A stretch of 64,000 nt of DNA, from contig CAZEAP010000010.1 in NCBI GenBank assembly GCA_964510315.1, positions 22,201-86,200 on the forward strand. Direction: 5' to 3'. Source of the DNA: an uncultured candidatus Brocadiaceae bacterium (GTDB lineage Bacteria > Planctomycetota > Brocadiia > SM23-32). The position numbers and the translations under genes are program-made. Below, one piece after another: positions 4,423 to 38,481 of the stretch; the first letter of the stretch is position 1, and each line of letters starts with the position of its first letter. A model generated the notes under the pieces. The model had not been told where the DNA came from. It saw nothing but the letters and a program-made list of their open reading frames with translations, and ran no database searches.

Positions 4423-5475
4423 TCAGGCGCTCTCCAGCAATTCCTCCAGGGAGAACTCCACCACACCGGTGCAGGTGTCGGCGGCACCGTAGTAGACCAG
4501 CACCGTATCGTCCCGACGAACTATGCCCGTTGGGAACACCACCGAGGGGACAAACCCCTCCTTCTCGAATGGGGCTTCGGGCACGAAGATCGGCTCGGTC
4601 GAGCGGCTGACAATCATGGAGGGATCGTCTTTGTCCAAAAGCAGCACGCCGGCCGAGTAGGTCCCGACCTCCCCTTCGACGGCCGAGAACGTCTTGCCGT
4701 GGTAGATCTCCAGCCAGGCTTGCTCCATCTCCAGCGGCGGGCAACCGGCGCCGATTCTCCCCACCTCCCAGGCGGCCTCTCCCGCGTGCAGAGGGACATG
4801 GTTGCCCCACGCCAACGCATCGACGGAGCGGGCAAGCCACATGCCCGGGGAAGAGAAGTGCATACGCGGGTTCGGCCGATGGAGGGCAACGTAGCTGCCG
4901 TCGATCTTCCGGGGAAAGAGCACCACGTCCTTGTTCTCCGGGCAGAAGATGATGCCGTGGCGCTGGAACGTCTCGAAGTCCTCCGTGGAGGCCAGCGCTG
5001 TGAGCGCCCCGTGCTCGGAGACCCCGACGTAGGTGAAGTAGCATTTCCCCCCGATGCGGACAATCCGGGGGTCCTCCGCGCCGAAGCTCTCCCAGTGCTC
5101 CTGCGGCATGAACCGGCCGATCTCCGGCCCGAGGGCGCGACCTTCGGGGATGCGGAACACCCGAAGGTGAGAGGTAGTGGTCATCCGCAGGCGCCGGTAC
5201 TTGCGCAGGAGAACTACCCGGGGGTCGATCTTCTCCAGCTCGGAGTCCGGCACCCAGTCCACCGTCAGCCCCTCTTCGGGGTCCCACCGCGGAAGCGGGC
5301 TCTGGCCGGGCGACTGCTCCGCAGGTCGCTCCGCCACCCGGACCACCAGCACCACCTCGCCATCCAGCTCGACCGCGCCGGGATTGAATGTGCCCACGAC
5401 CTCGAAGTCCGGGCGGGAGGGCTCGATATCCGAAGGCTTGATCAGGCACTCATTGAAGAAGCGGCGCGCAGTCAT
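4423..5475 (-). CDS. Glycoside hydrolase family 130 protein (beta-mannoside phosphorylase-like)
   Basis: Motifs FNPGAVELDG, HRPNPRMHF and VFPTG are typical of GH130 (DUF377 glycosidase-related). The first ATG is at 5475 (MTARRFF); a GTG at 5484 is also possible. Confidence 0.75.
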   Translation of the reverse strand: MTARRFFNECLIKPSDIEPSRPDFEVVGTFNPGAVELDGEVVLVVRVAERPAEQSPGQSPLPRWDPEEGLTVDWVPDSELEKIDPRVVLLRKYRRLRMTTTSHLRVFRIPEGRALGPEIGRFMPQEHWESFGAEDPRIVRIGGKCYFTYVGVSEHGALTALASTEDFETFQRHGIIFCPENKDVVLFPRKIDGSYVALHRPNPRMHFSSPGMWLARSVDALAWGNHVPLHAGEAAWEVGRIGAGCPPLEMEQAWLEIYHGKTFSAVEGEVGTYSAGVLLLDKDDPSMIVSRSTEPIFVPEAPFEKEGFVPSVVFPTGIVRRDDTVLVYYGAADTCTGVVEFSLEELLESA

Positions 5476-5612
5476 CGAAATCACCGTAATTCAGTTAATG
5501 CTTTTTAGACTCCGCCGACGGAGCCTTCCCCACCCGCGCAATTACCGGAGTTCCTCCCGGACGTCCACCAGCCGCCGGAGCCGGTCGCATCCCCGAACTT
5601 CAGACTTCGCTG

Positions 5613-6725
5613 TTACCGGTGGGCCAGCCGATCGGCTTGCAGCGCGGCGGCCAGCGCCTCGCGGCCGTTCTCTTCGGTCACGATTCTCTCGTGCCCGGAA
5701 TCCCGAATCCACTCCACCTGGTCGGCGATCATCCCGCGCAGCAGTTCGCCGTAGCGGTGCATCTCCTCCCGGCCTTCTCCGGCGGTGAGGCGGATCATCT
5801 GGGCGACGTCCAGCTCCTTTTCCCTCCCCCGGCAGGCCCGCTTCTCGGGCGGGTAATCTGCGGTCACGTCCAGCCGGTAGTCCGGAAATATCTCGCAGAG
5901 ACGGCGGGTGGCGGCCTCGTCGGCCAGCGCGTGTATACTCAGGGAAGTGGGAATCCACCCGTGCAGCCTCAGGTCGCCCCGCTCGAACAGGATCCGCGTC
6001 TCCTGCCGGTCCATCCGCCACGGCTGGTGGAAGCCGTGGTAGAAATGCCCGATCACGCCTCCGTCGTAGCGGACGCTGCACTGCACCTGCTCCTCGAGGC
6101 TGGTGTGGGGACGGCAGGTGGCCTGCGCGGCCACCACCCGGCCTGGCCCGAGCCAGCCGGCAAACAGGTCGAAGAAATGCACGCCGTGCTCCACGAAGAT
6201 TCCCCCGCTCTTCTCCCGGTCCCAGAACCAGTGGTCCGGGGGCAGCCCTTCGTCGGCGGCGTAGTTCTCGAACGAAGCGTGAAGAACCGCACCTAACGCG
6301 CGGGATTCGATCAGTTCGCGCACCTGCCTGAAGACGGGGTTGTAGCGCTGCATCAGGTCGGTCACCATCAGCAGGCCCCGCTCGCTCGCCGCGGCGAGCA
6401 TCTCGTCGGCCTGCTCGAGCGTCAGCGCCAGGGGCTTCTCGCAGATGACGTGTTTCCCGGCCTTCAAGGCCTTGATGGACTGCTCGTAGTGCAGGAACGG
6501 AGGCGTGCCGACGTAGACGAGGTCTATGTCGTCCCTCCCGACCAGGTCCTCAACGCCGCCGAAGTCGGGGATCCCGAACCGGGCTGCGGCCCTCGCGGCA
6601 GCGTCCTGGAAGGTTCCCGCCATGCCCACCAGTTCCACGCCGTCCACCTGCACGAACTGCTGGAGGGCAAACAGAGCGAAGCTGCCGCAGCCCACAACGC
6701 CGACCCTGACGCTCTTCTCTTCCAT
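5613..6725 (-). CDS. Gfo/Idh/MocA family oxidoreductase
   Basis: N-terminal Rossmann motif RVGVVGCGSFALF...ICEKPLA. Start taken at MEEKSV (6725); the track's upstream M at 6821 is possible. Confidence 0.75.
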   Translation of the reverse strand: MEEKSVRVGVVGCGSFALFALQQFVQVDGVELVGMAGTFQDAAARAAARFGIPDFGGVEDLVGRDDIDLVYVGTPPFLHYEQSIKALKAGKHVICEKPLALTLEQADEMLAAASERGLLMVTDLMQRYNPVFRQVRELIESRALGAVLHASFENYAADEGLPPDHWFWDREKSGGIFVEHGVHFFDLFAGWLGPGRVVAAQATCRPHTSLEEQVQCSVRYDGGVIGHFYHGFHQPWRMDRQETRILFERGDLRLHGWIPTSLSIHALADEAATRRLCEIFPDYRLDVTADYPPEKRACRGREKELDVAQMIRLTAGEGREEMHRYGELLRGMIADQVEWIRDSGHERIVTEENGREALAAALQADRLAHR

Positions 6726-6817
6726 ACCGGCGGCCCCTGATGTGAACTGAAAGTTCGAAACGTCAAGCGTACCGGAGCCCCGCGGCCGGCTCAACCCTAA
6801 CCATCGCTGAGCGGCAT

Positions 6818-7765
6818 TCACTCGATTGGCCGGGCCGTCTCAAGGAAGGCACCCACTTCGTCCATGTCGGGGATGCCCCGGCGTCCTCCGAGAGCTCTGC
6901 ACTTGAGGGCGGCGGTCGCCGCGGCCACCTGCATGGCTTTCTGTAGTTCCCACCCCCGAGCGACACCCAGCGCCATGGCGCCGTGATAGGCGTCTCCACA
7001 GCCTGTGGTATCCACCACTACCGGTGGGTGGTAGGCGGGCTGGTAGATGGCCCCGCCGGCCTGACGGGCCGCCGAGCCCCTCGTCCCGGCGGTTACCACG
7101 GCCGCTATTGCCCCGAACGGGGCCATCTCCTCAAACAGCGCTTCGGCGCCCTGTTCTGCACTCGACGCACCGTACCGCTCGGCTGCGAATTCCAGGGGAA
7201 CGATCACGTAATCGCCCAGGGACAGGAACTCCTCGGTCTCCTCGCCGCCGACTTCCAGGTCCATCGTGACGGTCGTCCCCATCGACCGTGCCAGCCGGGC
7301 GGCAGCCAGCGCGGCCCGCGGGTAGTAGTCATCCACGTGCAGCACCTCGGTGCGGCGGAGGGCCTGTTCGGAAACGTGCTCCGGCCCAAGTTCGGGAGCA
7401 TCCTCGGAACTCCACAGTATCATCCGGGTGCCGGCGGCCCGATCCGCCACGATCACGGCGAGGTGAGCGGACGCCCCCTCCACCCGCTCGACGAATCCGA
7501 TGTCGATGCCCTCCCGCTCCAGGGCTGAGACGGAGAAGTCGCCGAAAAAGTCGTCCCCCAGGGCGCCCAGATAGGCACAATGGCCTCCGAGCCGCGAGGC
7601 TGCGACGAGCGCAGTGCCGACCAGGCCGCCCCCCTGAGCCTGGATGGAGCGGGCCTCCATCTTTGCATCCGGTCCGGGCAGCCGGTCCGCCTCGGCGATG
7701 ATGTCGAACGCACAGACGCCCAATCCGACGATGTCGTATCCTGAAGCCATTACTCGGCCCTGCAC
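6818..7765 (-). CDS. PfkB-family carbohydrate kinase (ribokinase-like)
   Basis: DIVGLGVCAFD N-terminus and DTTGCGDAYHGAMA C-terminal PfkB signature. Start is GTG at 7765 or ATG at 7750. Confidence 0.75.
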   Translation of the reverse strand: MQGRVMASGYDIVGLGVCAFDIIAEADRLPGPDAKMEARSIQAQGGGLVGTALVAASRLGGHCAYLGALGDDFFGDFSVSALEREGIDIGFVERVEGASAHLAVIVADRAAGTRMILWSSEDAPELGPEHVSEQALRRTEVLHVDDYYPRAALAAARLARSMGTTVTMDLEVGGEETEEFLSLGDYVIVPLEFAAERYGASSAEQGAEALFEEMAPFGAIAAVVTAGTRGSAARQAGGAIYQPAYHPPVVVDTTGCGDAYHGAMALGVARGWELQKAMQVAAATAALKCRALGGRRGIPDMDEVGAFLETARPIE

Positions 7766-22897: not shown

Positions 22898-22971
22898 TGA
22901 GGATTGGTGTAATGGTAACACGCCTGACTCTGGATCAGGTAATCCAGGTTCGAATCCTGGATCCTCAGCCA
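22898..22971 (+). tRNA. tRNA-Gln (anticodon CTG)
   Basis: Cloverleaf folded by hand: 7-bp acceptor tgaggat/atcctca, anticodon stem cctga/tcagg with loop ctCTGga, T-arm ccagg-ttcgaat-cctgg, discriminator G and encoded CCA. Confidence 0.85.
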
Positions 22972-22984
22972 TTTTCGAATTGGT

Positions 22985-23062
22985 GGCCCCATCGTCTAGC
23001 CCGGCCCAGGACGCCGGACTCTCATTCCGGTAACAGGGGTTCAAATCCCCTTGGGGCTACCA
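22985..23062 (+). tRNA. tRNA-Glu (anticodon CTC)
   Basis: Closely parallels E. coli tRNA-Glu (GTCTAG...GGTAACAGGGGTTCaAATCCCCT). Anticodon loop ctCTCat, acceptor ggcccca/tggggct (G1-U72), encoded CCA. Confidence 0.85.
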
Positions 23063-23603: not shown

Positions 23604-26600
23604 GTGAGCGGAGGAACGCAAGAATCAACCCAGGCTGAACGGACCTCTGGCATGTCCGGCCAGAAATCAACTTCTCCCGAAGCCGAATCGCTCTGCCCCT
23701 CGGGTGTTTCCCGTTCCACCGGGTTGTCCGTACCGGCACGGTCGGCGGTCTATGGCGCCTTCTTCCTCTCCGGCGCCACGGCGCTGACGTTCGAGATCCT
23801 GTGGAGCCGGCAGTTCGTGCCCATATTCGGGAACAGCTCCTATGCCATCAGCGCCGTGTTGTGCGCCTTTATGGCCGGACTGGGCGTGGGGAATTGGGCG
23901 GGAGGCGTTCTGGCGGACCGCGTCCGCCGGAGGCTGCTGTTGTTCGCCGGCATTGAGACCGGTATCGCCGCCTGGGCGCTCCTGATGCCCTGGCTGCTGG
24001 CCGGCCTCCGCCGTTACGTTCCCCGGACATCGCTGCTGGTCTCGGACTCCCTGGCAGTAACCAGCGCGACCCGCTTTGTGTTCTCGCTGGCCATCCTGCT
24101 GATCCCCTGCGCGCTTATGGGCATGACCCTGCCCTGCCTGAGCCGCTTTGCCACGGAATCCGGCAAGGTCCTGGGCAAACGGGTGGGATTGCTTTACGGG
24201 CTCAACACCGTCGGCGCCGCCCTGGGCTGTCTGGCGGCCGGATACCTGCTGCTGGACGCCCTCGGCACAGCGGCTACAAATTACATTGCGGTGGGAATCA
24301 ACCTTGTTGTGGCGGCCGCAATCGCCCTGCTCCAGATCAGGATCAGCCGCGGGGCGCGCCCCGCGGCAAAGGAGCCGGTCGCCGCAGCGCCCGCGCCGCC
24401 GGGAGTTCCGCGGACGCTGCTGTTAGGGCTGGCGTTTCTGGGCGGTCTGGCGGGGCTCGCCTGCGAGGTGTTGTGGCTGCGCTACATGTATTTCGTAACG
24501 AGCGTCGCTTATTCCTTCACCAACATCCTGGCGATCTTCCTTTTGGGCCTCGGGGCGGGCAGCCTTCTTTACCGGCTGCTGCTTTCGGAGACGAAGCGTC
24601 CGCTGCGAGCCCTGGGCGTGGTGGAGATACTGCTCGGCCTGTCGGTGCCTGTCTGTTTCGCCGCGGGTGCAAAACTCTACTCCTCGTGGTATCTGAGCCG
24701 AGGCCCGCTGCTCGCCACGAAGATGGCTCTGCTGACCATCTTCCTCCCTACGGTATTCATGGGAATGGCCTTTCCCCTGCTGTGCGCCGCCTATGGCCCG
24801 CGGCTCAGCAAGGTGGGCCGGACGGTGGGGGCCATAGCCGGCCTGAACACAGCCGGCTCGATTGTTGGTTCGCTTCTGCCCATTTTCGTGCTGCTGCCGT
24901 TGCTGGGAGTGCAGAACAGCCTGCTGCTTCTGGCTTCGATGTATCTGGTAGTGGGCTCCCTGGTGCTGGCGGTTTCAGTGCGGCAGGGCCGACTGCGGCG
25001 GGTCGGTGTGGTGGGGGCCAGCGCGCTGGTAGTCATCCTGATGCTGACGTGCTTTCCGGCCGGACTGTGCCGACAGGTGTTTCTGGCCACCTCTCCGGAG
25101 CTGGGCGCTCACACGGAGATAGCCTTCTGGAAGGAAGGCCGCACGGCGACATCGGTTGTGGTAAGGGACAAGGTGGACGGCCTGAAAAACCTGTATATCA
25201 ACGGTACCGAAGAGGTGCCCATGCACTTTCCCGGCATGTCGGCGCACAAGATGCTGGGGACCCTGGGCCCGCTGCTCCATCCGAATCCAGACCGCGTATT
25301 CCTGATATGTTTCGGCGGGGGCATCACTGCCGGAACCGTGGTGCAACACCCCGAGGTGAAGTCGCTGGAGGTGGTGGACCTGGAAACCACGGTCTTCGAA
25401 GCGGCCGGCCTGCTGGAGGAGGCGAACAACCGTGTCCTCAGCAACCCCAAGGTGACCACGGCCGTCGCAGACGGACGGAATTATGCGCTCAGGCGTTCCA
25501 AGAAATGGCCCGTAATCATCGCAGACTCGACTCACCCGAAGGGAACCGACAGTTGGGTGCTTTACACCCGCGAGTTCTACCGGCTGATGCAGCGACACCT
25601 GAGCGAGGACGGGGTGTTCGTGCAATGGCTGCCCATGGTGGACCTCAGCGTCAGTGAATTCAAGATCATTCTTCGCACGCTGCAGTCGGTGTTTCCCCAT
25701 ACCAGCGTCTGGCTGACCTGCGGTGCCGACAGCACCGCAGGCGTGCGAGGAGACACCTTCCTTGTGGCCACCCCGGAGCCGTTGCAAATCAATCTGGAGC
25801 AGTTGCGGGAGAAGCTGGCCGCCCCGGCGGTCGCTAAGGACCTGCGCCCATACGGCCTGGATCGACCCGCGGAGGTGCTGAACTGCTTACTGGCCGCCGG
25901 CGACGGATTGCGAGCCTGGGTCGGGGGAGGGCCCATAAACACCGACGACCTGCCCCTCACCTATTACGAGACCCGCTATTCGCGCGGTACGCAGTGTCGG
26001 CTGCCTCAACTGGCCGAGCTAATGCAGGGAGTAGGATCCTACCTGACGCACGCCGGTCCGCCCGACAGGTACGCAGAGCTGAAGCGGAAGCTGGAGCGCT
26101 ACCGCAAAGGCAAGAAGCGTTTCATGACGGGGGACCTCCGGAGTGCATTCGAGCTGCTGCCCGAAAGTCCGCGGTTCCAGCAATTCAGCAGGAATCTCCA
26201 GCGGAGCGTCGGTTACGTCCGCCGCGTCACCCGCTATTACCAGGACCATCCGCTGCTTCTCGCCTGGTGGGCGCAGCGAGTGATGAACTACCCCGCCGGA
26301 GACCGCCTCGCAATGGAACTCTACCGCCGCCTGGTGAAGCTACGCCCCCGCGACGTGGGCGCCCGGAACAATCTGGCCCTCCTCTTGCACCGGCGCGGCA
26401 GAACGAAGGAAGCCGCTCGCCAGCTTCGGACCGTGGTGAGGAACGGGAAGGCCACCGCCCAGACCTACAACAACCTCGGGCTGTTTCTGGCCTCCCTCGG
26501 CGAGAACGAAGAGGCCTACGCGAACTACCGCCGAGCCCTCGGCAAGGATCCCGAGTTCGCCGACGCGCACTACAATCTCGGCGCACTGGCGGAGCGAAGA

Positions 26601-26990
26601 GGGAATCTCCAGGCCGCCGTCGATCACTATCGTGCGGCCGTCCGCTACGACCCCACGTCAGTCCAGGCGCTGGTACGACTGAGCCAGGCCCTGATGGCAA
26701 AGGGAGAGCACTTTGTGGCCGCACAGTACCTGCACAAAGCCGTCGGACTTAGCCCGCACAGCGCGACCCTCCACTATGGCCTCGGAGTTGCGCTGCTGCG
26801 CCAGGGCCACGCCGAGGCGGCTATCGCCAGCCTCCAACGCGCCCTCCGGATCGCCCCCGAACGAGAGGCCGTAAAGCAAAAACTCGCGCAGGCCCGCGCA
26901 CTCGTCGAGAAGCATGCCTCCTCGGGTCCAGAAACTTCGCCCCCCCTCAACCCCGGAGCCGGGCCCGGCGAAAGCTCTGAGGCGCCTTGA
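23604..26990 (+). CDS. Fused polytopic membrane / spermidine-synthase-like (PABS) / TPR-repeat protein
   Basis: 1128 aa. N-terminal ~12 TM helices, then a SAM-MTase-like spermidine synthase fold (LICFGGGITAGTVVQHPEVKSLEVVDLE), then C-terminal TPR repeats. A candidate promoter TTTGCA-N17-TATATA lies about 100 nt upstream. Confidence 0.7.
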   Translation: MSGGTQESTQAERTSGMSGQKSTSPEAESLCPSGVSRSTGLSVPARSAVYGAFFLSGATALTFEILWSRQFVPIFGNSSYAISAVLCAFMAGLGVGNWAGGVLADRVRRRLLLFAGIETGIAAWALLMPWLLAGLRRYVPRTSLLVSDSLAVTSATRFVFSLAILLIPCALMGMTLPCLSRFATESGKVLGKRVGLLYGLNTVGAALGCLAAGYLLLDALGTAATNYIAVGINLVVAAAIALLQIRISRGARPAAKEPVAAAPAPPGVPRTLLLGLAFLGGLAGLACEVLWLRYMYFVTSVAYSFTNILAIFLLGLGAGSLLYRLLLSETKRPLRALGVVEILLGLSVPVCFAAGAKLYSSWYLSRGPLLATKMALLTIFLPTVFMGMAFPLLCAAYGPRLSKVGRTVGAIAGLNTAGSIVGSLLPIFVLLPLLGVQNSLLLLASMYLVVGSLVLAVSVRQGRLRRVGVVGASALVVILMLTCFPAGLCRQVFLATSPELGAHTEIAFWKEGRTATSVVVRDKVDGLKNLYINGTEEVPMHFPGMSAHKMLGTLGPLLHPNPDRVFLICFGGGITAGTVVQHPEVKSLEVVDLETTVFEAAGLLEEANNRVLSNPKVTTAVADGRNYALRRSKKWPVIIADSTHPKGTDSWVLYTREFYRLMQRHLSEDGVFVQWLPMVDLSVSEFKIILRTLQSVFPHTSVWLTCGADSTAGVRGDTFLVATPEPLQINLEQLREKLAAPAVAKDLRPYGLDRPAEVLNCLLAAGDGLRAWVGGGPINTDDLPLTYYETRYSRGTQCRLPQLAELMQGVGSYLTHAGPPDRYAELKRKLERYRKGKKRFMTGDLRSAFELLPESPRFQQFSRNLQRSVGYVRRVTRYYQDHPLLLAWWAQRVMNYPAGDRLAMELYRRLVKLRPRDVGARNNLALLLHRRGRTKEAARQLRTVVRNGKATAQTYNNLGLFLASLGENEEAYANYRRALGKDPEFADAHYNLGALAERRGNLQAAVDHYRAAVRYDPTSVQALVRLSQALMAKGEHFVAAQYLHKAVGLSPHSATLHYGLGVALLRQGHAEAAIASLQRALRIAPEREAVKQKLAQARALVEKHASSGPETSPPLNPGAGPGESSEAP

Positions 26991-28580: not shown

Positions 28581-28656
28581 GGGCGCATAGCTCAGTGGCG
28601 AGAGCGCTACCTTCACACGGTAGAAGTCGCAGGTTCGAGTCCTGCTGCGCCCACCA
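28581..28656 (+). tRNA. tRNA-Val (anticodon CAC)
   Basis: GGGCGCA-TA-GCTCAGTGGCGAGAGC-G-CTACCttCACacGGTAG-AAGTC-GCAGGTTCGAGTCCTGC-TGCGCCC-A-CCA. Canonical 76-nt cloverleaf. Confidence 0.9.
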
Positions 28657-29431: not shown

Positions 29432-29773
29432 TCACCGGGCTACGGCCTTCCATTTCCGCTGAAGGATAGCGTACACGCAGGTGTCGCGCCATCGCCCCGA
29501 ACATGAATAGCAGGGATCGTAGGCCCGCACGAGCATCTCGCAGCGTCGGCGGATCTCTTCGGTCGGGCGGTGGGCCACCTGTCCCACCAGTGCCTTCATG
29601 TCCTCCTCCAGGCCGAGGAAGTTGTGGGCCGTCGGAGCGACGATGTTGGCGCCGGTTACCTCCCCCTTGCGTGTAGCTTTCACGGCCGCCGGCCGGACAT
29701 TGCCCCCGTCCGGCCCAAAGCAGCCGGTACAGATTGGATTGTGGCTGAGGCCGGAAAAGCCGCCAAGCGTCCG
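29432..29773 (-). pseudogene. Orphan fragment resembling the C-terminal ~70 aa of a [NiFe]-hydrogenase large subunit
   Basis: GANIVAPTAHNF...ALVGQVAHRPTEEIRRRCEMLVRAYDPCYSCS parallels the IVAPTTWN ... DPCxxC C-terminal nickel-binding region of NiFe large subunits. The frame is closed by a stop 30 codons upstream of the GTG start (29683). No N-terminal 400+ aa of a hydrogenase is present. Confidence 0.4.
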
Positions 29774-30771: not shown

Positions 30772-30855
30772 CTGCGCCTCCCGCCCTCTGCGCGTAGGAA
30801 TACCGCGAACCCGTGCATCATAGGGACAGCCTGGCGGCGCGGCAAGAGCGAGCCG

Positions 30856-31176
30856 CGCCACGCCGAGGCGGTTCGGGTGGAGTATGATCCTTCGAAGGTT
30901 TCCTACCGGGAGCTTCTGGACGTGTTTTGGAGCAGCCATAACCCAACGACGCCGAACCGCCAGGGATTCGACGTTGGTTCACAGTACAGATCGGCCATCT
31001 TCTACCACGACGGGAGTCAGGAGGCCGCCGCCAGGGCTTCAAAACGGGAACGGGAGCAGGCCGGAAGGTTCAGCTCGCCGATCGTGACCGAGATCGAGCC
31101 GGCATCGCGGTTCTGGCCGGCCGAAGACTACCACCAGTGCTACCTGGCCAAACGGCGAGGCGAGCCGGTGGAGTAA
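30856..31176 (+). pseudogene. msrA: 3' fragment of peptide methionine sulfoxide reductase MsrA (catalytic N-terminal half missing)
   Basis: [62 protein letters not shown]...[25 protein letters not shown] aligns with the C-terminal ~105 aa of MsrA. The GCFWG active-site region is absent in all frames, and its expected position is occupied by the minus-strand gene 29836-30771. Confidence 0.6.
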
Positions 31177-31211: not shown

Positions 31212-32750
31212 CTACTCCGAGGTATCCCGCTGGAACATCCTGGGTGTTTCGGGAGACTCGGCGAGCATCTGGGCGCCGCGCCCCACCACGGCCTGAGACA
31301 CGATGCCCTCGACGGTGCTGCCGCTGCCGATGATGCTTTCACTGACGTGACCGTCGCGCACGACGGCACCCTCCATGATGATCGAGTCGCGGACGGTTGA
31401 GTTGCCAACACTTGCTCCGGGGCCGACGTACACGTGGGGCCCAACGCGGGCACTTTCCAGGACGGCCTCTTTGGCAATCTGCGCCGGTCCCTTGATATGG
31501 GTTTCCGAATCGTGTCTGCCTCTTCGAGAGTCAACGAGAAAATGCCGATTGGCGTCGAGAAGCTTCCTCCGGGTGCCGACGTCGAACCAGGGCTCGGTCG
31601 TCAGGTGACCGGCCAGCGGGACGCCGCTGACGACCAGCCAGTGCATGAAGCTGCCGAGGCTGTACGGATCGCCGCCACCCTTGAGGTACTTCGGCAGGGA
31701 GTCAACTTCCTCCTCACGTAGGAAGTAGCAGGCGGTGCTGATGTTCAGAAACGCGGGTATTTCCTGCTTCTCCGTGAACTCGCTCACCGTTTCGTCGGAA
31801 TCGAGGGTGGCTACGCCATACTGGCTGACGTCGCTGCCCGTCTCGAACCTGTAGAGGGCATTGGCGCTGGTACCCTTGCGAGCAGCAAAACGCAGGAACT
31901 CATCCAGTGCGAAGCTAAACACGTTATCTCCGCCCAAGACGACGACATCGCGAGGTCCCTGCAGATTCACCGCGTAGTGGAGCGCTCCTATAGGTCCAAG
32001 ATTTCCGCCGGAGTCGCTCACTGGCTCGGCAATCACCTCAGCGTCCTCGGTGCCCACACGCGTGAGAAACGCACGGATATCTTCCTGAAACTCTCGGTTG
32101 GTCAAAAGGTAAGTACGACGGACGGAGCTACAGTCCCGGATAAAATCCAGGACGTAACTGAGAACAGGTTTGCCGGCAACAGGCAGCAGAACCTTGCAGA
32201 AGTCCAGCGTCAGCGGCCACAGCCGGGAACCGGAACCGCCGCAAAGCACGATGCAGTCCACATCAGGCGGGCCCGAAGCGCGAATCTTCGGAAACGCTGC
32301 AACTATTTTGGCGCGCAAGTCGTCGGGCGTGGTGAAGAAGTTCACCGTCACACGCTCGGAGACCTTGTGTCGGAACGCCTTCTGATCCTGCCAACGGCCG
32401 TCCTCGATGAGCAGGTTGGCCGGAACAGGGAAGTCTTCTGCCGACAGAAGCATAAGACAGGGCTTGGACAGCTCTTGGGCTACCTCGAACTCCAGTTCAG
32501 TGAAGCTGATCTCGGTGCCCTTCGGGCTGCTGCCGTAGCACGGCCCCAGGAGGCCGACGAAGACGTCACAGTTCCCTATCTGCTCCCGACAGTAATCGGC
32601 CGGAGTTTGGTGGTCGACCGTGAAGTCCTCCATCCGAACGCAGTGATGGCCCATGGACTTGACGGCCTTCTCTGCCGCGTCGCGGTATGCCAACAGGTCT
32701 TTGGTAGTGGAGCTGAGGAACACGGTTTTGGGGTTGTTGTCTGCAGTCAT
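31212..32750 (-). CDS. DUF4062-domain / sugar-1-phosphate nucleotidyltransferase / left-handed beta-helix fusion protein
   Basis: N-terminus KTVFLSSTTKDLLAYRDAAEKAVKSMGHHCVRMEDF...CDVFVGLLGPCYGSSPKGTEISFTELEFEVAQEL matches the DUF4062 family (VFISSTxxDLxxER ... SYTELEY). Then an NTP_transferase core (LCGGSGSRLWPLT, GGDNVF, EKQEIP, WFDVGT), then hexapeptide repeats. ATG at 32750 with GGAGA RBS. Confidence 0.7.
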   Translation of the reverse strand: MTADNNPKTVFLSSTTKDLLAYRDAAEKAVKSMGHHCVRMEDFTVDHQTPADYCREQIGNCDVFVGLLGPCYGSSPKGTEISFTELEFEVAQELSKPCLMLLSAEDFPVPANLLIEDGRWQDQKAFRHKVSERVTVNFFTTPDDLRAKIVAAFPKIRASGPPDVDCIVLCGGSGSRLWPLTLDFCKVLLPVAGKPVLSYVLDFIRDCSSVRRTYLLTNREFQEDIRAFLTRVGTEDAEVIAEPVSDSGGNLGPIGALHYAVNLQGPRDVVVLGGDNVFSFALDEFLRFAARKGTSANALYRFETGSDVSQYGVATLDSDETVSEFTEKQEIPAFLNISTACYFLREEEVDSLPKYLKGGGDPYSLGSFMHWLVVSGVPLAGHLTTEPWFDVGTRRKLLDANRHFLVDSRRGRHDSETHIKGPAQIAKEAVLESARVGPHVYVGPGASVGNSTVRDSIIMEGAVVRDGHVSESIIGSGSTVEGIVSQAVVGRGAQMLAESPETPRMFQRDTSE

Positions 32751-32853
32751 GGCTTTTCTATCTCCGGTTGCCGATCCCTCAAAAATAAGCCCGGCTAAGC
32801 CGGCTCGCGACGCCACAATGATAGCAGGAAAGTCCGTCCCGGGAAACCGGGTC

Positions 32854-35433
32854 TCACAGCTTATACACCTCCAGGCCGGCTTCTCCGAGTACTTCCGGCC
32901 AGTCCCGGACTGCCTGGCGGTCGTATTCTTTGATCTTCTCGGGTAGTTCCTCCCAGGGGACGAGATAGGGACTCACTTTGACTTTGGCGTCGCGTCGCGG
33001 ACCGTAGCTCCACCCCGCGCGGAGCCTTTCGAGAATCCAGCGCCCGTGCTCCATCTCGGCCATGGTTTCCACTTCCTCGTCGGTGAACTGCACGGAGGCG
33101 GGCTCGCCCTCGGCCTCCCCCACGCCGTATCCGATGCGGCGGAGCGTCTGCTCGGCGTAGGCGGCCTGCTGGCGGTTGGACTCTTTCAGGTCCTCGCGCA
33201 GTTCCTGCCACGGCACCATCGCCGGATCGGCACTGCGGTAGCGGTTCTCCTCCAGGAACCGCTCGTGTACGGCCTTGCCCGCCCTTTCGACCAACTCGGC
33301 GGGTATCTGCGGTGTGGCGGGATTGACGAACGCCCGAACCGCCGCCGGGTCGGGGGGCAGCCAGATCAGCCGGGAGGCCGGCCACCAGCGGCGTTCCTCT
33401 CGCAGTTCCGAAGCGCTGCGACCGCTGGACTCCACCACACCCACTGTGGCGCCGAGGGCGAGGGCCAGCCGCGCCTCAAAGCCCGTGATGGGACCGCCGT
33501 TGATCACCAGCACGCGCACGTCGGCGGGGTCGACGCCGGCCGCGATCAGGTCAATCCAGGACTGCAGCGGTTCGAGGGCGGTGAAGTCCCGCGTGTGAGG
33601 CTCCGCCCTTCCCCTTCCCATGTCGGTCGTCACCTGCACCTCGTATCCCTCGTGCAGCTTCACCTCGTCGGGGAGCGGCGGCATGAAGAAGGGCCGGTAG
33701 CCTATGCGCCGCACCTCGTCGGCCGGTCCTTCGGTGGCATCGGCGGCCAGGCCGCTGACCCCGGCCGTGGTGCCGCCACCGACGACGATGCCCCGGAACC
33801 CCTCAAACGCTTCCCGCAGCATTTCGCGGTATTGCTGCATCTCCTGTTCAACGCTGGCCGCACAGCCGCCGCTGACCATCGCGACATCGCCACTGACCGG
33901 GCTGAGGTCCGCCGATACCAGGCCCTCCAGCTCCTCCGTCCGCTCCCGTACCTCGCCGGGCATCTGTTTCTCACGCTCCGGCTCACCGCTGGCCTCCCGG
34001 CCGGCCGCCGTGACAACCACGGCAAGCAGCAGGAATCGGCGCACCGCTTCGATCGCCCAGTTCAGGTCCGCGAACGCGGGCATTTCAGGCAGCGACCGAA
34101 GGATGGGTTTCTCATAGTGCTCGACCGAGCGGAGCGCCAGGCAGATGGGCGTCGGGCTCGCACTGAGTTCGATACCCCGCGCGTAGGCGGCAAGCGCCTG
34201 GTAAGGACGGTCCAGCAGCAGGGCGAATGTCCCCATGTCGTAGAAGGCCCAGGGCAGGTAGATCTCTACCTCGGCCCAGTCCCGGCAGGTCTCCACGGCC
34301 GCCTCGAGGCTGGGGCGCATCAGCGAGATGAACTCGACGTCGCCTACGAAACCGGTCTTACACTCCAGATAGTTCGCCAGCACGTGAGCGTCACCGGGGG
34401 CGGCCTCGAAGGCGCGTTCGTAGTAGTGTAGGGCTTTTTCCGGCTCCTCCTCCCAGGTGTCCCCCAGCGCGCAGAGGGCGTCGGCATCGGTGGGGTCCAG
34501 CGCGACCGCGCGTTCCAGCTCGGCCCGGCCGCCTTCGCCGGCCTGATGTTTGGCCAGGCCGAGGTCCCGCAGGACGGGCGCGGAGCCGGAGTGACGGAAC
34601 GGCTCCAGGACTTCCATCGCCTTCTGCCAGTCTTCAAGCGAGATGGCGAGGGCGGCGATTCGGTCCGCAAGGTCCGAGTTTTCCCGGTCGTAGCGGAGCA
34701 CCATCTCCCACTTGGCTATCTCTTTGCGCATCTCCTCAGGGTCCATGTAAGCGCCGTAGTGGGATTTGTAGGCGTCCAGGGCCTCGACCGCTCGTCCGAA
34801 CTGGCCGTCCGCGTCCTCCAGGAGCGCAGCGACACGCGCCAGTTCGCGCCGGAACCTGTCCGGCACGTCGAACTCGCTCTTGTAGACCCTGTCGTGGCTG
34901 ATGCCCGCCCAGGCGTGTTGCAGGAGGGTTCGCACCTGGATCTCCGCCTTGCGTTCGCCGATCCGTTCCAGCACGTCGATCCCGCCCTTCCGGCGGCTCA
35001 CCTCCTCGATAGCCTCTTCCAGGCAGGGCCTGTCGCCGCGAAGCTGCACGACGTAATGCACGGAACGATAGCCAAACTCCTCCGGCCGCAGCCTCCGGAG
35101 CACGTCCATGCTGTTGGCTTCATCGATCCGAAAGTTCTCCCGGACGAACCGGCAGATTCGCCGGACTTCCGGCTGCGTCTGGGTGATGACGCGGGCGCCG
35201 CACAGATCGGTCATCTGGGAGACCGGGGCGCTGTAGCGGTCGCTTCTGCGGACGATCTTCTCGGCGAAGCTGGGTATGCTCTTGGCGCGGGTCTGCACGA
35301 TGCCGACCGTCTCGCAGTCCTTGCAGGCGCGGGTAAGGGCCTCCGAGAGCACATCGGCGTAGAGCACGTAACGGGGCCGCTCTTCGGAGTACCTTTCCAC
35401 CTGCCTCTCATGTTCTACCGGGTCTACAGGCAT
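32854..35433 (-). CDS. RelA/SpoT-domain (alarmone-synthetase-like) protein with TPR, LOG/SLOG-like and C-terminal RyR domains
   Basis: 859 aa, no HD hydrolase domain. N-terminal synthetase motifs TRAKSIPSFAEKIVRR, TDLCGARVI, GYRSVHYVV and EIQVRTLLQHAWAGISHDRVYK. Central TPR-like helices. A Rossmann-like region VVGGGTTAGVSGLAA...INGGPITGFEARL fits the LOG/SLOG GGGxxG / PGGxGTxxE pattern. C-terminus EHGRWILERLRAGWSYGPRRDAKVKVSPYLVPWEELPEKIKEYDRQAV matches the RyR domain (GWSYG). ATG at 35433 with GGGAG RBS. Confidence 0.7.
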   Translation of the reverse strand: MPVDPVEHERQVERYSEERPRYVLYADVLSEALTRACKDCETVGIVQTRAKSIPSFAEKIVRRSDRYSAPVSQMTDLCGARVITQTQPEVRRICRFVRENFRIDEANSMDVLRRLRPEEFGYRSVHYVVQLRGDRPCLEEAIEEVSRRKGGIDVLERIGERKAEIQVRTLLQHAWAGISHDRVYKSEFDVPDRFRRELARVAALLEDADGQFGRAVEALDAYKSHYGAYMDPEEMRKEIAKWEMVLRYDRENSDLADRIAALAISLEDWQKAMEVLEPFRHSGSAPVLRDLGLAKHQAGEGGRAELERAVALDPTDADALCALGDTWEEEPEKALHYYERAFEAAPGDAHVLANYLECKTGFVGDVEFISLMRPSLEAAVETCRDWAEVEIYLPWAFYDMGTFALLLDRPYQALAAYARGIELSASPTPICLALRSVEHYEKPILRSLPEMPAFADLNWAIEAVRRFLLLAVVVTAAGREASGEPEREKQMPGEVRERTEELEGLVSADLSPVSGDVAMVSGGCAASVEQEMQQYREMLREAFEGFRGIVVGGGTTAGVSGLAADATEGPADEVRRIGYRPFFMPPLPDEVKLHEGYEVQVTTDMGRGRAEPHTRDFTALEPLQSWIDLIAAGVDPADVRVLVINGGPITGFEARLALALGATVGVVESSGRSASELREERRWWPASRLIWLPPDPAAVRAFVNPATPQIPAELVERAGKAVHERFLEENRYRSADPAMVPWQELREDLKESNRQQAAYAEQTLRRIGYGVGEAEGEPASVQFTDEEVETMAEMEHGRWILERLRAGWSYGPRRDAKVKVSPYLVPWEELPEKIKEYDRQAVRDWPEVLGEAGLEVYKL

Positions 35434-35795: not shown

Positions 35796-36494
35796 TTACA
35801 TGGCCTCGTAAAGAACGTCCACGTGCCCATTTTGAGATGCCTCTGCCACCTCGTCCACGGCGCCCCTGTACTGCGCCAGCTTGGAGCCGCCGAAGATGCG
35901 AAACAGGACGGCGGCAAGATTGTGGTGTGTTTCGATCACAGCGTCCGGGAAATGGGATTCGCGGAGCGAGTTTTGGACGTAGAAGGCGTGGCTCTCCAGC
36001 AGCGTCATCACCGGCTGGACGGCTTGCACTTTGGCCAGGGCCTCCCGGGGGGAGCCGCCTCCTTCCGAAAGGAGGGCGGAGGCCTGCCGAATCGCCTCGT
36101 CCACGCGTTCGAATAGATTCCCGTGGTTGACGTGCTGGCCCCGGTGCACCAGTTCGTGGGCGACCACCAGTCGCAGTCCGTTCAGATTGCTCTCGTCCAC
36201 GTTCTCGCGGACCACCAGCAGCTCCGCGCTGCTGGGCTCGTATGCGGCCAGCGCATTGTTCTCCACCACGTATTCAAGCAGTCGCTCCAGCAGGCCGCGT
36301 CCGGTGTCTTCGACCGGAACCCCCGCCCCCCGCAGCCTCCCGAGTACAAGTTCCTCATAGCCCCGGTCTTTCGGGAGGACGCGCTCGCCCATGTCGTCTG
36401 CGTAAATGGCCCACTCGGTGGCTTCCTCGACCAGTGGGGCGACTTGTTCGGCCAGGCGACTCACAAGCTTTTCGGTGATGTTGATTTGGGCCAT
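35796..36494 (-). CDS. HExxH-motif putative zinc metallopeptidase
   Basis: VVAHELVHRGQH zinc-binding motif; ATG at 36494 with GGAGGA RBS. The track's longer N-terminus, starting at 36587, is unlikely. Confidence 0.5.
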   Translation of the reverse strand: MAQINITEKLVSRLAEQVAPLVEEATEWAIYADDMGERVLPKDRGYEELVLGRLRGAGVPVEDTGRGLLERLLEYVVENNALAAYEPSSAELLVVRENVDESNLNGLRLVVAHELVHRGQHVNHGNLFERVDEAIRQASALLSEGGGSPREALAKVQAVQPVMTLLESHAFYVQNSLRESHFPDAVIETHHNLAAVLFRIFGGSKLAQYRGAVDEVAEASQNGHVDVLYEAM

Positions 36495-36528
36495 TTGCTT
36501 CCTCCGCCGTGTCGGCGGGTTCGAGGTC

Positions 36529-38481
36529 TCAGAATGCGGGCACGGCGCCGCGGGTGACGGTCCGGACCAGCGTGGAGATTCCACCAACTGACGCCTCGGC
36601 GACGATAAGGGCTATGAAGAAGTAGCGCGCCTGACGCAGTTTCCCCCCGCCGAACAGCTTCATGATTCCCATCTTGCAGAGCCATCCCAGCAAGAAGGGG
36701 AACCATAACCTGTGGGCGTGCCAGCTATGGCACGACAGCAGGCCGATGGCGTGAATCGGCCACCAGTAGAACCGGGCGCGCATGTACATAAAGAACGTCA
36801 TGCCGCCGGCCCCCAGCAGCAGCGACTTGGGGTATGCCTTGGCGGCCGCGGAGCCCTGCTTTATGATGCGCTGAGCCGAGTCCATGCGCCACTTCGGTTC
36901 CGCAGTCTGCGCCCACCAGTCCGAATAGTTCGCGCCCCCCATGCGGTAGGCCGTGTTCAGGGAGGTCCACGTCCCGCAGAGAAGCGCCACCAGGAAGGCC
37001 ACCATCAGGATGGGGACGAGGAGACGACGTTTGGCGGGCTTGAAAACGTCGGAGATGCGGAAGGCGTTGATGGCCATGGGCGCCAGGTAGGCGGTGCCGC
37101 CGGTGATCAGCAGAGGGTCCTGAAGATTCGTGATGACCGCCCCGGCCGGTCCCAGCGCCCGGCCTCCCGTTATGCCATGGATGAATTCCGGCAGGCGCCA
37201 GGTCGTCCTCGCCACGTAGAGTCCCGCCTGGGCGACCACGCGCGCGTAAACCAGGTACCAACAGATGATCATCGCGAAGGCGGCAACCGCCGCCGGCCAC
37301 CGCATGCCGTGGTAGGCATACCATCCGAGGCATGCCCCCAGCGTGACGAGAGAACCCCAGAACCCCAGGCGGTAGCCGACCGGCTCACCGCTGTCGTCGG
37401 CGTCCTTCAGGCCGAGGGCCTTCCGCAGCACCACCCACAGGTGCCGGCGGGCCATGAACAGTATTCCGGCGGTGAAAGCGATGTAAGCGCCGGCCTGCTG
37501 CCAACGCATCAGCGGTTTGCGCAGATGCCCCAGCCCCAGGTAGTGGGCCGTCTGCAGTTCCATCCTGGCGACCAGGTAGAAGACCCAGATGCTCAGCGAG
37601 ACGTCGGCGGGCACAAGGAACGCGAAGCCCACCGCGGAGGTCCACAGGTTGAAGTTCTGAAAACCCATCGGCTCCAGGGGCGTTCCCGCCAGCGCGTCCT
37701 TTATCGGGAGGGGGATATGGAACGCGGGACCGGCGCCGAAGATGACGGGCAGCGCCCTGATGAAACGGAAGCTGAGCGCGAAGACCAGCCCGACGATGAA
37801 GCCCTTCTGGGTGAACGCGGCGGGAAGCCAGCGGCGTTCCGCGCTGCCCTGGGTGAACTCCAGGGGCACGCGGGCCAGTGGAAACATCAGTCGCTCCGAC
37901 TCCACCCACTGCCGGCGCAGGATTCCCATCAGGAAGAAGATGAACAGGTACAGGGCGATGAAGAAGACGCCCCAGTGGATCAGCGGTCGCATCCAGCGTC
38001 CCCACGGCACCCGCTCCCATCCGCCCTTGAAATAGCGGGCGGCCGCCACGGAGCGCGGGTCGTTGCTCAACACCAGCTCTTCGGGCGCGTGGGTCAGCGC
38101 GCCGTCGTCCTCCCAGGCGACGTCCGCGCGCCGGGCGAGATACGACGGAGCCGCCGTAAAGGAAAACCAGAAGCGGGCCAGCCCGTCGCCCGGGAACGTG
38201 GCTCCGACGATCAGCATGCACCAGACCAGCATCAACTCCGCCTGGCTCAGCTCCCAGCCGCGTCGGACCAGCTTGATCAGGAGGTTCACTCCCACCGTCA
38301 GTATGACCAGCACGAGCACTGCCCCGCCGGGGAAGGCCGTCCCGCTGAAACCGCCCCATCCCTTGGCCCAGCTCACCCAGGGCTCGAGCAGTGCTATGCC
38401 CGCCACGAAGAAAAGGCCGATGAGGAAGGCCCGCCAGGTCACGATGCGCTCCGCGATTTGTGGTGGATCGTCCGGGGTCAA
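36529..38481 (-). CDS. Large polytopic membrane protein of unknown function
   Basis: 650 aa and more than 12 predicted TM helices by hydrophobic-segment inspection. No recognisable catalytic motif. Confidence 0.55.
   Translation of the reverse strand: MTPDDPPQIAERIVTWRAFLIGLFFVAGIALLEPWVSWAKGWGGFSGTAFPGGAVLVLVILTVGVNLLIKLVRRGWELSQAELMLVWCMLIVGATFPGDGLARFWFSFTAAPSYLARRADVAWEDDGALTHAPEELVLSNDPRSVAAARYFKGGWERVPWGRWMRPLIHWGVFFIALYLFIFFLMGILRRQWVESERLMFPLARVPLEFTQGSAERRWLPAAFTQKGFIVGLVFALSFRFIRALPVIFGAGPAFHIPLPIKDALAGTPLEPMGFQNFNLWTSAVGFAFLVPADVSLSIWVFYLVARMELQTAHYLGLGHLRKPLMRWQQAGAYIAFTAGILFMARRHLWVVLRKALGLKDADDSGEPVGYRLGFWGSLVTLGACLGWYAYHGMRWPAAVAAFAMIICWYLVYARVVAQAGLYVARTTWRLPEFIHGITGGRALGPAGAVITNLQDPLLITGGTAYLAPMAINAFRISDVFKPAKRRLLVPILMVAFLVALLCGTWTSLNTAYRMGGANYSDWWAQTAEPKWRMDSAQRIIKQGSAAAKAYPKSLLLGAGGMTFFMYMRARFYWWPIHAIGLLSCHSWHAHRLWFPFLLGWLCKMGIMKLFGGGKLRQARYFFIALIVAEASVGGISTLVRTVTRGAVPAF

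Follow-up and report, generated by a model that had tools for sequence, protein, structure and literature searches.

Domains of the DUF4062 family have been described as TIR-like NADases with a catalytic glutamate that act in phage defense, and were named NIR (bioRxiv 10.64898/2026.05.01.722283, 10.64898/2026.09.04.749371, 10.64898/2026.06.25.731849). They convert NAD+ to ADP-ribose (ADPR) and nicotinamide, and the NIR systems include Swarozyc, Vulcan, Vesta, and Evangelion, as well as an effector of Avs2 (same three preprints); a nucleotidyltransferase auxiliary domain is mentioned in none of these preprints. The toxSAS literature (FaRel, FaRel2, PhRel, CapRel) is the source of another idea relevant here, namely that a RelA/SpoT homolog (RSH) domain serves as a growth-arresting effector accompanied by a neutralizing hydrolase. 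The locus described here brings both types of domains side by side. The window, i.e., the whole stretch of 64,000 nt that was analyzed, originates from an uncultured candidatus Brocadiaceae bacterium (GenBank assembly GCA_964510315.1, contig CAZEAP010000010.1, positions 22,201 to 86,200) and contains two co-oriented genes on the minus strand. Gene A (32854..35433) encodes an 859-aa RelA/SpoT-TPR-SLOG(LSDAT)-RyR protein, as assigned by its open reading frame (ORF), Pfam matches, homologs, and a structural model. Gene B (31212..32750) encodes a 512-aa fusion of DUF4062, a sugar-1-phosphate nucleotidyltransferase-like domain (NTP_transferase), and a left-handed beta-helix (LbH), as assigned by its ORF and Pfam matches.

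A sequence-only reading of this DNA had regarded the two genes as a specific cassette for conflict or nucleotide signaling and DUF4062 as an uncharacterized domain. Both ORFs were confirmed by translation, and a conflict or nucleotide-signaling role is plausible for both genes; the fixed cassette did not survive comparison with other genomes, and the label "uncharacterized" is overtaken by the three 2026 preprints. A and B are not a fixed pair, and gene B would be a rare local version of a TIR-type partner. Our favored reading, put forward tentatively from sequence comparisons, is that each of them supplies one module to a Thoeris-like conflict system built on NAD and nucleotides. The layout resembles Thoeris in that TIR genes, in varying number, flank an effector with a SLOG domain, and gene B fits the partner class because it joins a TIR-like domain at the N-terminus to a C-terminal module of the variable kind.

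Genomic neighborhoods of the gene A and gene B families

Gene A has at least 596 full-length homologs, and the family is present in at least 590 species-representative genomes, spread over a wide range of bacterial phyla and over several lineages of archaea. Neighborhoods were counted in the best 80 of these (at least 590) genome hits, with flanks of up to 10 kb; flanking ORFs were clustered to find recurrent neighbors, and six-frame translations of the 80 loci were scanned with hidden Markov models (HMMs) of TIR and DUF4062 built from the sequences in hand. The scan yielded 44 TIR ORFs, distributed over 29 loci, whereas 6 loci had DUF4062 ORFs, and a TIR or DUF4062 gene is located within 3 kb of gene A in 29 of the 80 loci. 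The density of TIR-like ORFs amounts to 1.51 per 10 kb at distances of up to 1 kb from gene A vs. 0.17 per 10 kb at 3-10 kb, an approximately 9-fold enrichment (binomial P = 2e-9), with 22 of 23 lying in the same orientation as gene A. Overall, gene A is accompanied by up to three co-oriented genes, or by none, whose products begin with a TIR or DUF4062 domain and continue into a C-terminal module that varies; several loci hold two or three TIR genes, as is also the case in Thoeris. The TIR partners belong to the Pfam family TIR_2, some also matching ThsB_TIR, and their C-terminal parts are a beta-propeller, TPR, NACHT/NPHP3_N, or FGE-sulfatase domain, or are lacking. The catalytic glutamate is intact in 39 of the 42 TIR domains flanking gene A. 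A DUF4062 partner directly adjoins gene A in two loci (L030 and L071).

The most common neighbor of gene A revealed by clustering is a NUDIX gene of about 140 aa (Pfam NUDIX, E 5e-20). It is found within 1 kb of gene A in 51 of the 80 loci, is co-oriented with it in 48, and mostly lies immediately upstream. The nearest solved structure is the MutT-related 3grn (E 6e-38), and the further relatives are NudI, NudG, and MutT, not the ADPR pyrophosphatases. A NUDIX gene or a remnant of one was not detected in our window by a family-specific NUDIX HMM run over six frames (E <= 10, --max).

The closest relatives of gene A (49-51% identity) lack gene B and are situated in another conserved block, where a gene for a 1500-1600-aa FG-GAP/TIR_2 protein follows downstream on the same strand, its stop overlapping the start of a 161-aa NUDIX gene. 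Gene B occupies the position that the FG-GAP-TIR_2 gene has in these nearest relatives. The block (L085-L089, e.g., L087:3928-14429) comprises genes for an Asp/Glu racemase, a 165-aa protein, YdjM, gene A, and the FG-GAP/TIR_2 protein.

The exact combination of A and B was not recovered elsewhere. Searches of the 80 gene A-family loci by tblastn with the whole of gene B, and separately with the DUF4062 and the enzyme halves, revealed gene B in none of them, the sole yield being the unrelated DUF4062 gene in L071. Conversely, a RelA/SpoT gene is absent from all seven available contexts of the gene B clade (L081, L082, L084, L092, L090, L091, and L093); the clade member is solitary amid unrelated neighbors in L081, L082, L084, and L092, as well as in L090, where the body is fused to TIR, and L091, where it is fused to CHAT. 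The sequence-only reading had itself named the failure of the two genes to be neighbors in related genomes as an outcome that would speak against it, and for the exact pair this is what is found. The DUF4062 domain of gene B is 32% identical to that of the A-adjacent gene in L071 vs. 45-50% to unrelated DUF4062 domains.

Other genes recur near gene A at lower frequencies: a second RyR-domain gene in 9 of the 80 loci, a ClpA/B-like gene in 11, and a YbjN-like gene in 7. In one metagenomic locus (L196:1-8250; JGI Ga0209253_10000109), gene A is divided between two genes that overlap, RelA_SpoT-TPR (4535-6004) and SLOG-RyR (6001-7086), and these are part of a cluster with genes for a ClpB-like AAA+ protein, a CesT-like protein, NUDIX, a 609-aa channel-like TrkA_N-RyR protein, YbjN/TY-Chap1, and ClpP; the TrkA_N-RyR gene is placed between NUDIX and the split gene A. 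TrkA_N (RCK) proteins that carry an annotation as Kch-type potassium channels (P0292-P0299) likewise end in a RyR domain, and such TrkA_N-RyR proteins connect RyR domains with channels in prokaryotes. No clear swapping of other effectors on the SLOG-RyR scaffold was observed, the additional matches being mainly C-terminal fragments, the split L196, and TrkA_N-RyR proteins.

The best 80 gene A genome hits are all metagenome-assembled genomes, from Chloroflexota, Planctomycetota, Gemmatimonadota, Bathyarchaeia, methanogens, and other groups. The absence of cultured isolates among them may be the reason why the family has escaped study. IMG/VR contains no full-length gene A and only proteins limited to the RSH domain, and a phage origin of gene A was dropped on these grounds.

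Domain architecture and comparison with described systems

The RelA/SpoT synthetase domain of gene A (residues 48-187; 34873..35292, minus strand) matches Pfam PF04607 with E 1.4e-17 and a score of 64.4 bits against a gathering score of 27, and the same domain was identified in all 29 family members tested. Sixteen positions do not vary in these 29 homologs (R49, K51, S55, K59, T75, D76, G79, R81, G121, Y122, S124, H126, E164, Q166, R168, and T169), and all but T75 belong to the synthetase motifs RxKxxxSxxxK, DxxGxR, GYRSxH, and ExQxRT, which we take to be the catalytic and ATP-binding motifs known from Rel and RelQ. HD, TGS, and ACT domains were not matched in the gene A protein by Pfam at E <= 1, in agreement with the sequence-only reading. 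By sequence search, the nearest solved structures are small alarmone synthetases (SAS) of the RelQ/RelP type (2be3, E 1.5e-12), and Foldseek with the gene A model likewise retrieved RelQ/RelP enzymes (5dec, 6fgk). PADLOC recognized the RSH core only, as the candidate PDC-S33 (profile positions 32-175 of 349).

The synthetase domain is followed by a TPR-like helical repeat region (residues ~232-482; 33988..34740, minus strand; Pfam TPR_14, TPR_11, and others). Pfam TPR matches span about residues 260-360, and the whole region is helical in the AlphaFold2 model, Foldseek pointing to the TPR regions of OGT and SPY. A weak match to TPR-S (E 0.047) is shared with 4 of the 29 family members. The full-length AlphaFold2 model has a pLDDT of 87 and a pTM of 0.84; since TPR hits swamped the whole-protein Foldseek search, the SLOG segment was modeled on its own.

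The SLOG domain, probably of the LSDAT (TRPM-type) clade, was assigned to residues ~516-703 (33325..33888, minus strand) from Pfam, matches across the family, and fold. In gene A itself the family LSDAT_prok ("SLOG in TRPM, prokaryote") scores 20 bits, under the gathering score of 25.4; the sub-threshold call is supported by the fact that 22 of the 29 homologs match LSDAT_prok independently, with a best E of 2.3e-9. The segment has a Rossmannoid fold with a glycine-rich loop and a GGxxxxxE motif, and both the loop and the GG...E motif are unvaried in the 29 homologs (42-52% identity). Its separate model adopts a SLOG fold with structural matches to TRPM2 and to the SLOG domain of ThsA, and in eukaryotes it is most closely related to the MHR1/2 domains of TRPM proteins, among them the ADPR-gated channel TRPM2. 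At the C-terminus, two RyR repeats form a Repeat12-like module (residues ~712-858; 32860..33300, minus strand), matched by Pfam RyR in two tandem stretches with E 7.5e-18 and 65 bits against a gathering score of 27.4. Searches by phmmer matched the module to the RyR1 chimera 6uhi (E 5.7e-22) and also to 3nrt, a bacterial entry, and Foldseek aligned it with RyR3 Repeat12 entries (TMt 0.55-0.63); the matched Repeat12 entries of the Protein Data Bank (PDB) are titled as complexes with ATP, ADP, or AMP-PCP. The motifs quoted by the sequence-only reading (EIQVRTLLQHAWA, GGGTTAG, NGGPITGFE, and GWSYG) are all found in the translation, and of its three accessory domains, TPR and RyR stood directly, SLOG being sub-threshold in this protein and backed by the homologs. 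Taken together, gene A is predicted to be a stand-alone, synthetase-only RSH protein joined to domains of the nucleotide-sensor type.

In gene B, the DUF4062/NIR core (residues 10-91; 32478..32723, minus strand) matches Pfam PF13271 with E 4.6e-22 and 78.5 bits against a gathering score of 24.7. Its SFTE stretch (S82-F-T-E85) aligns with SFTE of the KpSwz structure (PDB 10wc), F11 and the S[FY]TExE motif (E85, E87) are kept in 15 of 15 DUF4062 fusions of the gene B clade, and these motifs correspond to F11 and E87 reported for Evangelion (Eva01). The domain keeps the catalytic glutamate, and we infer from the alignments which glutamate would catalyze. The nucleotidyltransferase-like domain (residues 167-403; 31542..32252, minus strand) matches Pfam PF00483 with E 2e-27 and 96.8 bits against a gathering score of 21.2. 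Invariant or nearly invariant across the clade are GGxGxRL...K186, G274-D275-N276, E327-K328, and W388-x-D390-x-G392. The top NCBIfam match, rmlA_long, reaches 111 bits against a cut-off of 320, and the mannose-1-phosphate (man1P) guanylyltransferase family is also far below its cut-off; with scores so far under the NCBIfam cut-offs, gene B is therefore not an ortholog of a named enzyme. The LbH tail (residues ~419-487; 31290..31496, minus strand) was recognized through weak Pfam matches to LbH_GLGC, LbH_EIF2B, and Hexapep, and homologs of gene B are annotated with PF25087 (GMPPB_C). The composition proposed by the sequence-only reading for gene B, i.e., DUF4062, sugar-1-phosphate nucleotidyltransferase, and LbH, was thus reproduced by Pfam, with weak matches for the tail.

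Fusions of this type are rare, approximately 16 full-length examples being present among 5.8 billion proteins. A scan of JGI metagenomes added a single one (L093, on a 2.5-kb contig), the remaining 79 loci being generic NTP-transferases. On the same enzyme body, DUF4062 is replaced by TIR in P0141, P0146, P0147, P0149, and P0167 and by the caspase-like CHAT domain in P0140 and P0142-P0144; the nucleotidyltransferase-LbH body of gene B is 40-46% identical to such TIR- or CHAT-headed proteins (P0140-P0149, P0167; L090:7001-8437; L091:7001-8608). This exchange of DUF4062, TIR, and CHAT on one body is the effector-swapping pattern of single-protein defense systems, and the body with its swappable effector domains may represent an unreported class of sensors. 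Seemingly unfused relatives of the body look like truncated gene calls.

Like Thoeris, the gene A family combines a SLOG protein with one to several flanking TIR genes, some of them ThsB_TIR with an intact glutamate. It differs in that the effector is a RelA/SpoT synthetase, whereas ThsA carries SIR2 or a transmembrane (TM)/Macro module; in the LSDAT/LOG-like clade of its SLOG domain, the added TPR and RyR regions, and the NUDIX partner; and in the large, variable C-terminal domains of its TIR partners. In the window, the neighbor of gene A carries DUF4062 and not ThsB_TIR. With toxSAS and other SAS proteins, gene A shares a synthetase-only RSH domain that has all catalytic motifs and is closest to RelQ/RelP. 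However, gene A is an 859-aa multidomain protein without an adjacent small antitoxin or small alarmone hydrolase. The analogy to toxSAS/CapRel drawn by the sequence-only reading is weak, since the CapRel entries 7ztb and 9erv were matched at E 0.073 only, far behind the RelQ/RelP type. Nor does the family have a CapRel-type antitoxin: its only conserved small neighbor is NUDIX, and its C-terminus is TPR-SLOG-RyR. TRPM2, which unites LSDAT/MHR1-2 with the NUDIX domain NUDT9-H, is a further point of comparison; gene A lacks a channel domain, and its NUDIX partner is MutT/NudI-like, not NUDT9-like.

Gene B shares with Swarozyc, Evangelion, Vulcan, Vesta, and Avs2-NIR the N-terminal DUF4062, F11 and the glutamate of S[FY]TE, and a variable C-terminus. 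It differs from them in that the C-terminal body is an apparently catalytically intact sugar-1-phosphate nucleotidyltransferase-LbH, which elsewhere is found on TIR or CHAT; its architecture is that of none of the five systems, and PADLOC gave no match. Residues 167-487 resemble RmlA, ManC, and GlmU in the fold-defining motifs and the LbH tail. In contrast to these enzymes, the enzyme of this clade invariably comes with a fused TIR-like or CHAT domain, gene B lies outside a polysaccharide cluster, and orthology to RmlA, ManC, GlmU, or GlgC was not supported at the NCBIfam cut-offs. In the literature searched, neither the gene A architecture nor a Thoeris-like system with an RSH effector is described, though either may have been listed computationally before.

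The A-B junction and the surrounding window

Gene A starts with an ATG preceded by GGGAG and gene B with the ATG at 32750 preceded by GGAGA, which bears out the separate Shine-Dalgarno sequences claimed for the two genes. The gap between A and B is 103 nt with this start. The spacing of 37 nt given by the sequence-only reading is true only for an alternative GTG start of gene B at 32816. The gap includes a terminator-like hairpin, CCGGCTTAGCCGG, followed by a T-run (32781..32803, minus strand), which was detected by a scan for terminator-type sites; the hairpin would fall inside the GTG-start extension of gene B, which favors the ATG at 32750. The region contains 5 terminator-like sites vs. 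3.2 +/- 2.0 in shuffled sequence, and because this number is not above that of shuffled sequence, the hairpin is weak evidence of separate transcription. The GC content at third codon positions (GC3) is 0.73 in gene B vs. 0.83 in gene A, and it is also higher in the neighbors of gene B.

The neighboring genes of the window (panB, homoserine dehydrogenase, GH57, glycosyltransferases, GH130, and creatininase) are ordinary housekeeping genes, and neither integrase nor transposase was found among the ORFs scanned (roughly 18.8-46.2 kb of the window); a defense-island context was rejected for these reasons. The sequence-only reading had described a locus full of gene remnants. One remnant is clear, a 5'-truncated MsrA (30811-31176, plus strand; Pfam PMSR positions 46-148 of 153, E 5e-40) that converges on the 3' end of gene B, its N-terminal catalytic part being absent or overlapped by an Fe-S ORF on the opposite strand. 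Another possible remnant is an 83-aa ORF (29432-29683, minus strand) ending in "...VRAYDPCYSCSG", which by eye resembles the C-terminal end of the large subunit of a NiFe-hydrogenase and has no Pfam support at E <= 0.01. The description is thus borne out for MsrA and not for the hydrogenase-like ORF or for the wider, housekeeping context.

Directly upstream of gene A lies a gene for a 263-aa HExxH protein without a Pfam family (35796-36587, minus strand), which overlaps the end of a gene for a 650-aa DUF6785+DUF6784 membrane protein (36529-38481, minus strand); neither is a conserved neighbor of gene A elsewhere. Further features include tRNA-Val(CAC) (28581-28656, plus strand) at 2.5 kb from the end of gene B, tRNA-Gln(CTG) and tRNA-Glu(CTC) (22898-23062, plus strand) with 14 nt between them, and a gene for a 1128-aa protein with a spermine/spermidine-synthase-like domain (E 4e-18) and a long C-terminal TPR array (23604-26990, plus strand).

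Possible function and alternative explanations

In the favored Thoeris-like reading, the TIR-like protein would sense an invader or stress through its variable C-terminal module, upon which its TIR-like domain would split NAD+ to yield ADPR or a derivative. The NAD-derived ligand would bind the SLOG domain of gene A, possibly with the involvement of the RyR module, predicted to bind adenine nucleotides. Binding would free the RelA/SpoT domain, and the resulting alarmone synthesis or pyrophosphorylation of a target would arrest growth. Where present, NUDIX would clear the ligand or the product and prevent spurious firing, i.e., act as a reset. In the window, gene B would take the part of the TIR-like partner, in a version of the system without a NUDIX gene.

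A number of observations weigh against this scheme. The exact pair is seen in this window only, gene B-clade proteins stand alone in seven of seven other contexts, so gene B does not need gene A, and 64% of the gene A loci have no TIR-like gene within 3 kb. The PADLOC models of Thoeris match neither gene, and the DUF4062 domains characterized so far are effectors that deplete NAD and are not proven to generate a signal. The NUDIX partner resembles NTP pyrophosphohydrolases (MutT, NudI, NudG) more than ADPR pyrophosphatases. At the junction, the hairpin stands between A and B (32803-32781), and the lower GC3 of gene B suggests separate acquisition.

Many of the same data suit a quite possible and equally serious rival, according to which the genes are independent neighbors. 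Gene B would then be a self-contained, single-gene NADase defense like Evangelion, Vulcan, or Avs2, with the nucleotidyltransferase-LbH body as a sensor or oligomerization scaffold; gene A would work with NUDIX/TIR partners elsewhere or alone, and the adjacency would reflect the clustering of conflict genes. An autonomous gene B is a serious contender because its body exchanges DUF4062, TIR, and CHAT as single-protein defense systems do, a behavior typical of sensor-effector proteins, and single-gene DUF4062 systems with variable auxiliary regions are documented (the 2026 preprints). The solitary position of the clade in all other contexts, the hairpin, and the unlike GC3 of A and B argue in the same direction, as does the DUF4062 domain of gene B, which is no nearer to A-adjacent DUF4062 genes than to unrelated ones. 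On the other hand, the window, with its housekeeping neighbors and lack of mobility genes, is not a defense island, and given that DUF4062 genes are also rare, a chance co-oriented placement 103 nt downstream of A is unlikely; moreover, the position of gene B agrees with the family-wide enrichment of TIR-like genes beside gene A. At the opposite extreme, A and B could form a dedicated, co-evolved cassette with a joint biochemistry, e.g., a nucleotidyltransferase and a pyrophosphokinase building one novel nucleotide. Although the genes are co-oriented and close, have their own Shine-Dalgarno sequences, and retain the catalytic motifs in both enzymatic domains, the lack of gene B in all 80 gene A loci and in the nearest relatives of gene A (49-53% identity), together with the lack of gene A in all seven gene B-clade contexts, makes this version extremely improbable.

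The signal might also flow in the reverse direction, a scheme that we hold to be unlikely: the RelA/SpoT domain of gene A would make an alarmone-like signal, RyR in gene A and in TrkA_N-RyR proteins would sense the product, SLOG would process or sense a nucleotide upstream, and TIR-like proteins would be parallel effectors. The second RyR-domain genes near gene A, the position of TrkA_N-RyR between NUDIX and the split gene A in L196, and the adenine-nucleotide complexes of RyR Repeat12 are all compatible with it. E. coli MutT and NudG hydrolyze (p)ppGpp, and a MutT/NudG-like NUDIX would suit alarmone hydrolysis. However, the accessory RyR-domain gene is present in only ~11% of the loci, and the stronger association with TIR is left unexplained. 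Still less probable is a role in ordinary physiology, with gene A as a nucleotide-regulated stress alarmone synthetase and gene B as a sugar-nucleotide enzyme with a regulatory N-terminus. It would account for the housekeeping context of the window, the stable syntenic block around the nearest gene A relatives, the similarity of the synthetase to physiological RelQ/RelP enzymes, the retention of all nucleotidyltransferase motifs in gene B, and the location of one gene B homolog close to genes for a phosphomannomutase and a further NTP_transferase. It is at odds with the patchy distribution of gene A over phyla and domains, the tight linkage of gene A to genes of the TIR-STAND, TIR-TPR, and TIR-WD40 types, the presence of DUF4062, TIR, and CHAT, hallmark defense effectors, on the gene B-type body, and the failure of gene B to reach any NCBIfam equivalog cut-off.

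A broader extension of the favored Thoeris-like reading, which we regard as possible though less likely than not, is that loci composed of NUDIX, RelA/SpoT-TPR-LSDAT SLOG-RyR, and TIR/DUF4062-X constitute an uncharacterized pan-prokaryotic immune pathway, in which diverse TIR-like sensors would produce an NAD-derived ligand, a TRPM2/RyR-type module would read it, and an alarmone burst or tRNA pyrophosphorylation would follow. Such a pathway would form a direct connection between NAD-based immunity and the stringent response, and the nucleotidyltransferase body of gene B would become a new class of input domains that sense metabolites or modify the signal. If the two genes merely stand side by side, what is left is two uncharacterized candidate defense genes. 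Gene B also adds to the DUF4062/NIR NADase family an unreported nucleotidyltransferase-LbH body on which TIR, DUF4062, and CHAT effectors are swapped. Should the Thoeris-like reading be true, TIR-to-SLOG signaling of the Thoeris type would gain a new output, i.e., alarmone synthesis or RSH-mediated arrest of translation. It would also place prokaryotic kin of TRPM MHR1/2 and RyR Repeat12, both modules of animal Ca2+ channels, together with NUDIX in one system, which would bear on how TRPM2 acquired its gating by ADPR, and it would provide a function for a family that occurs in at least 590 species of bacteria and archaea, most of them uncultured.

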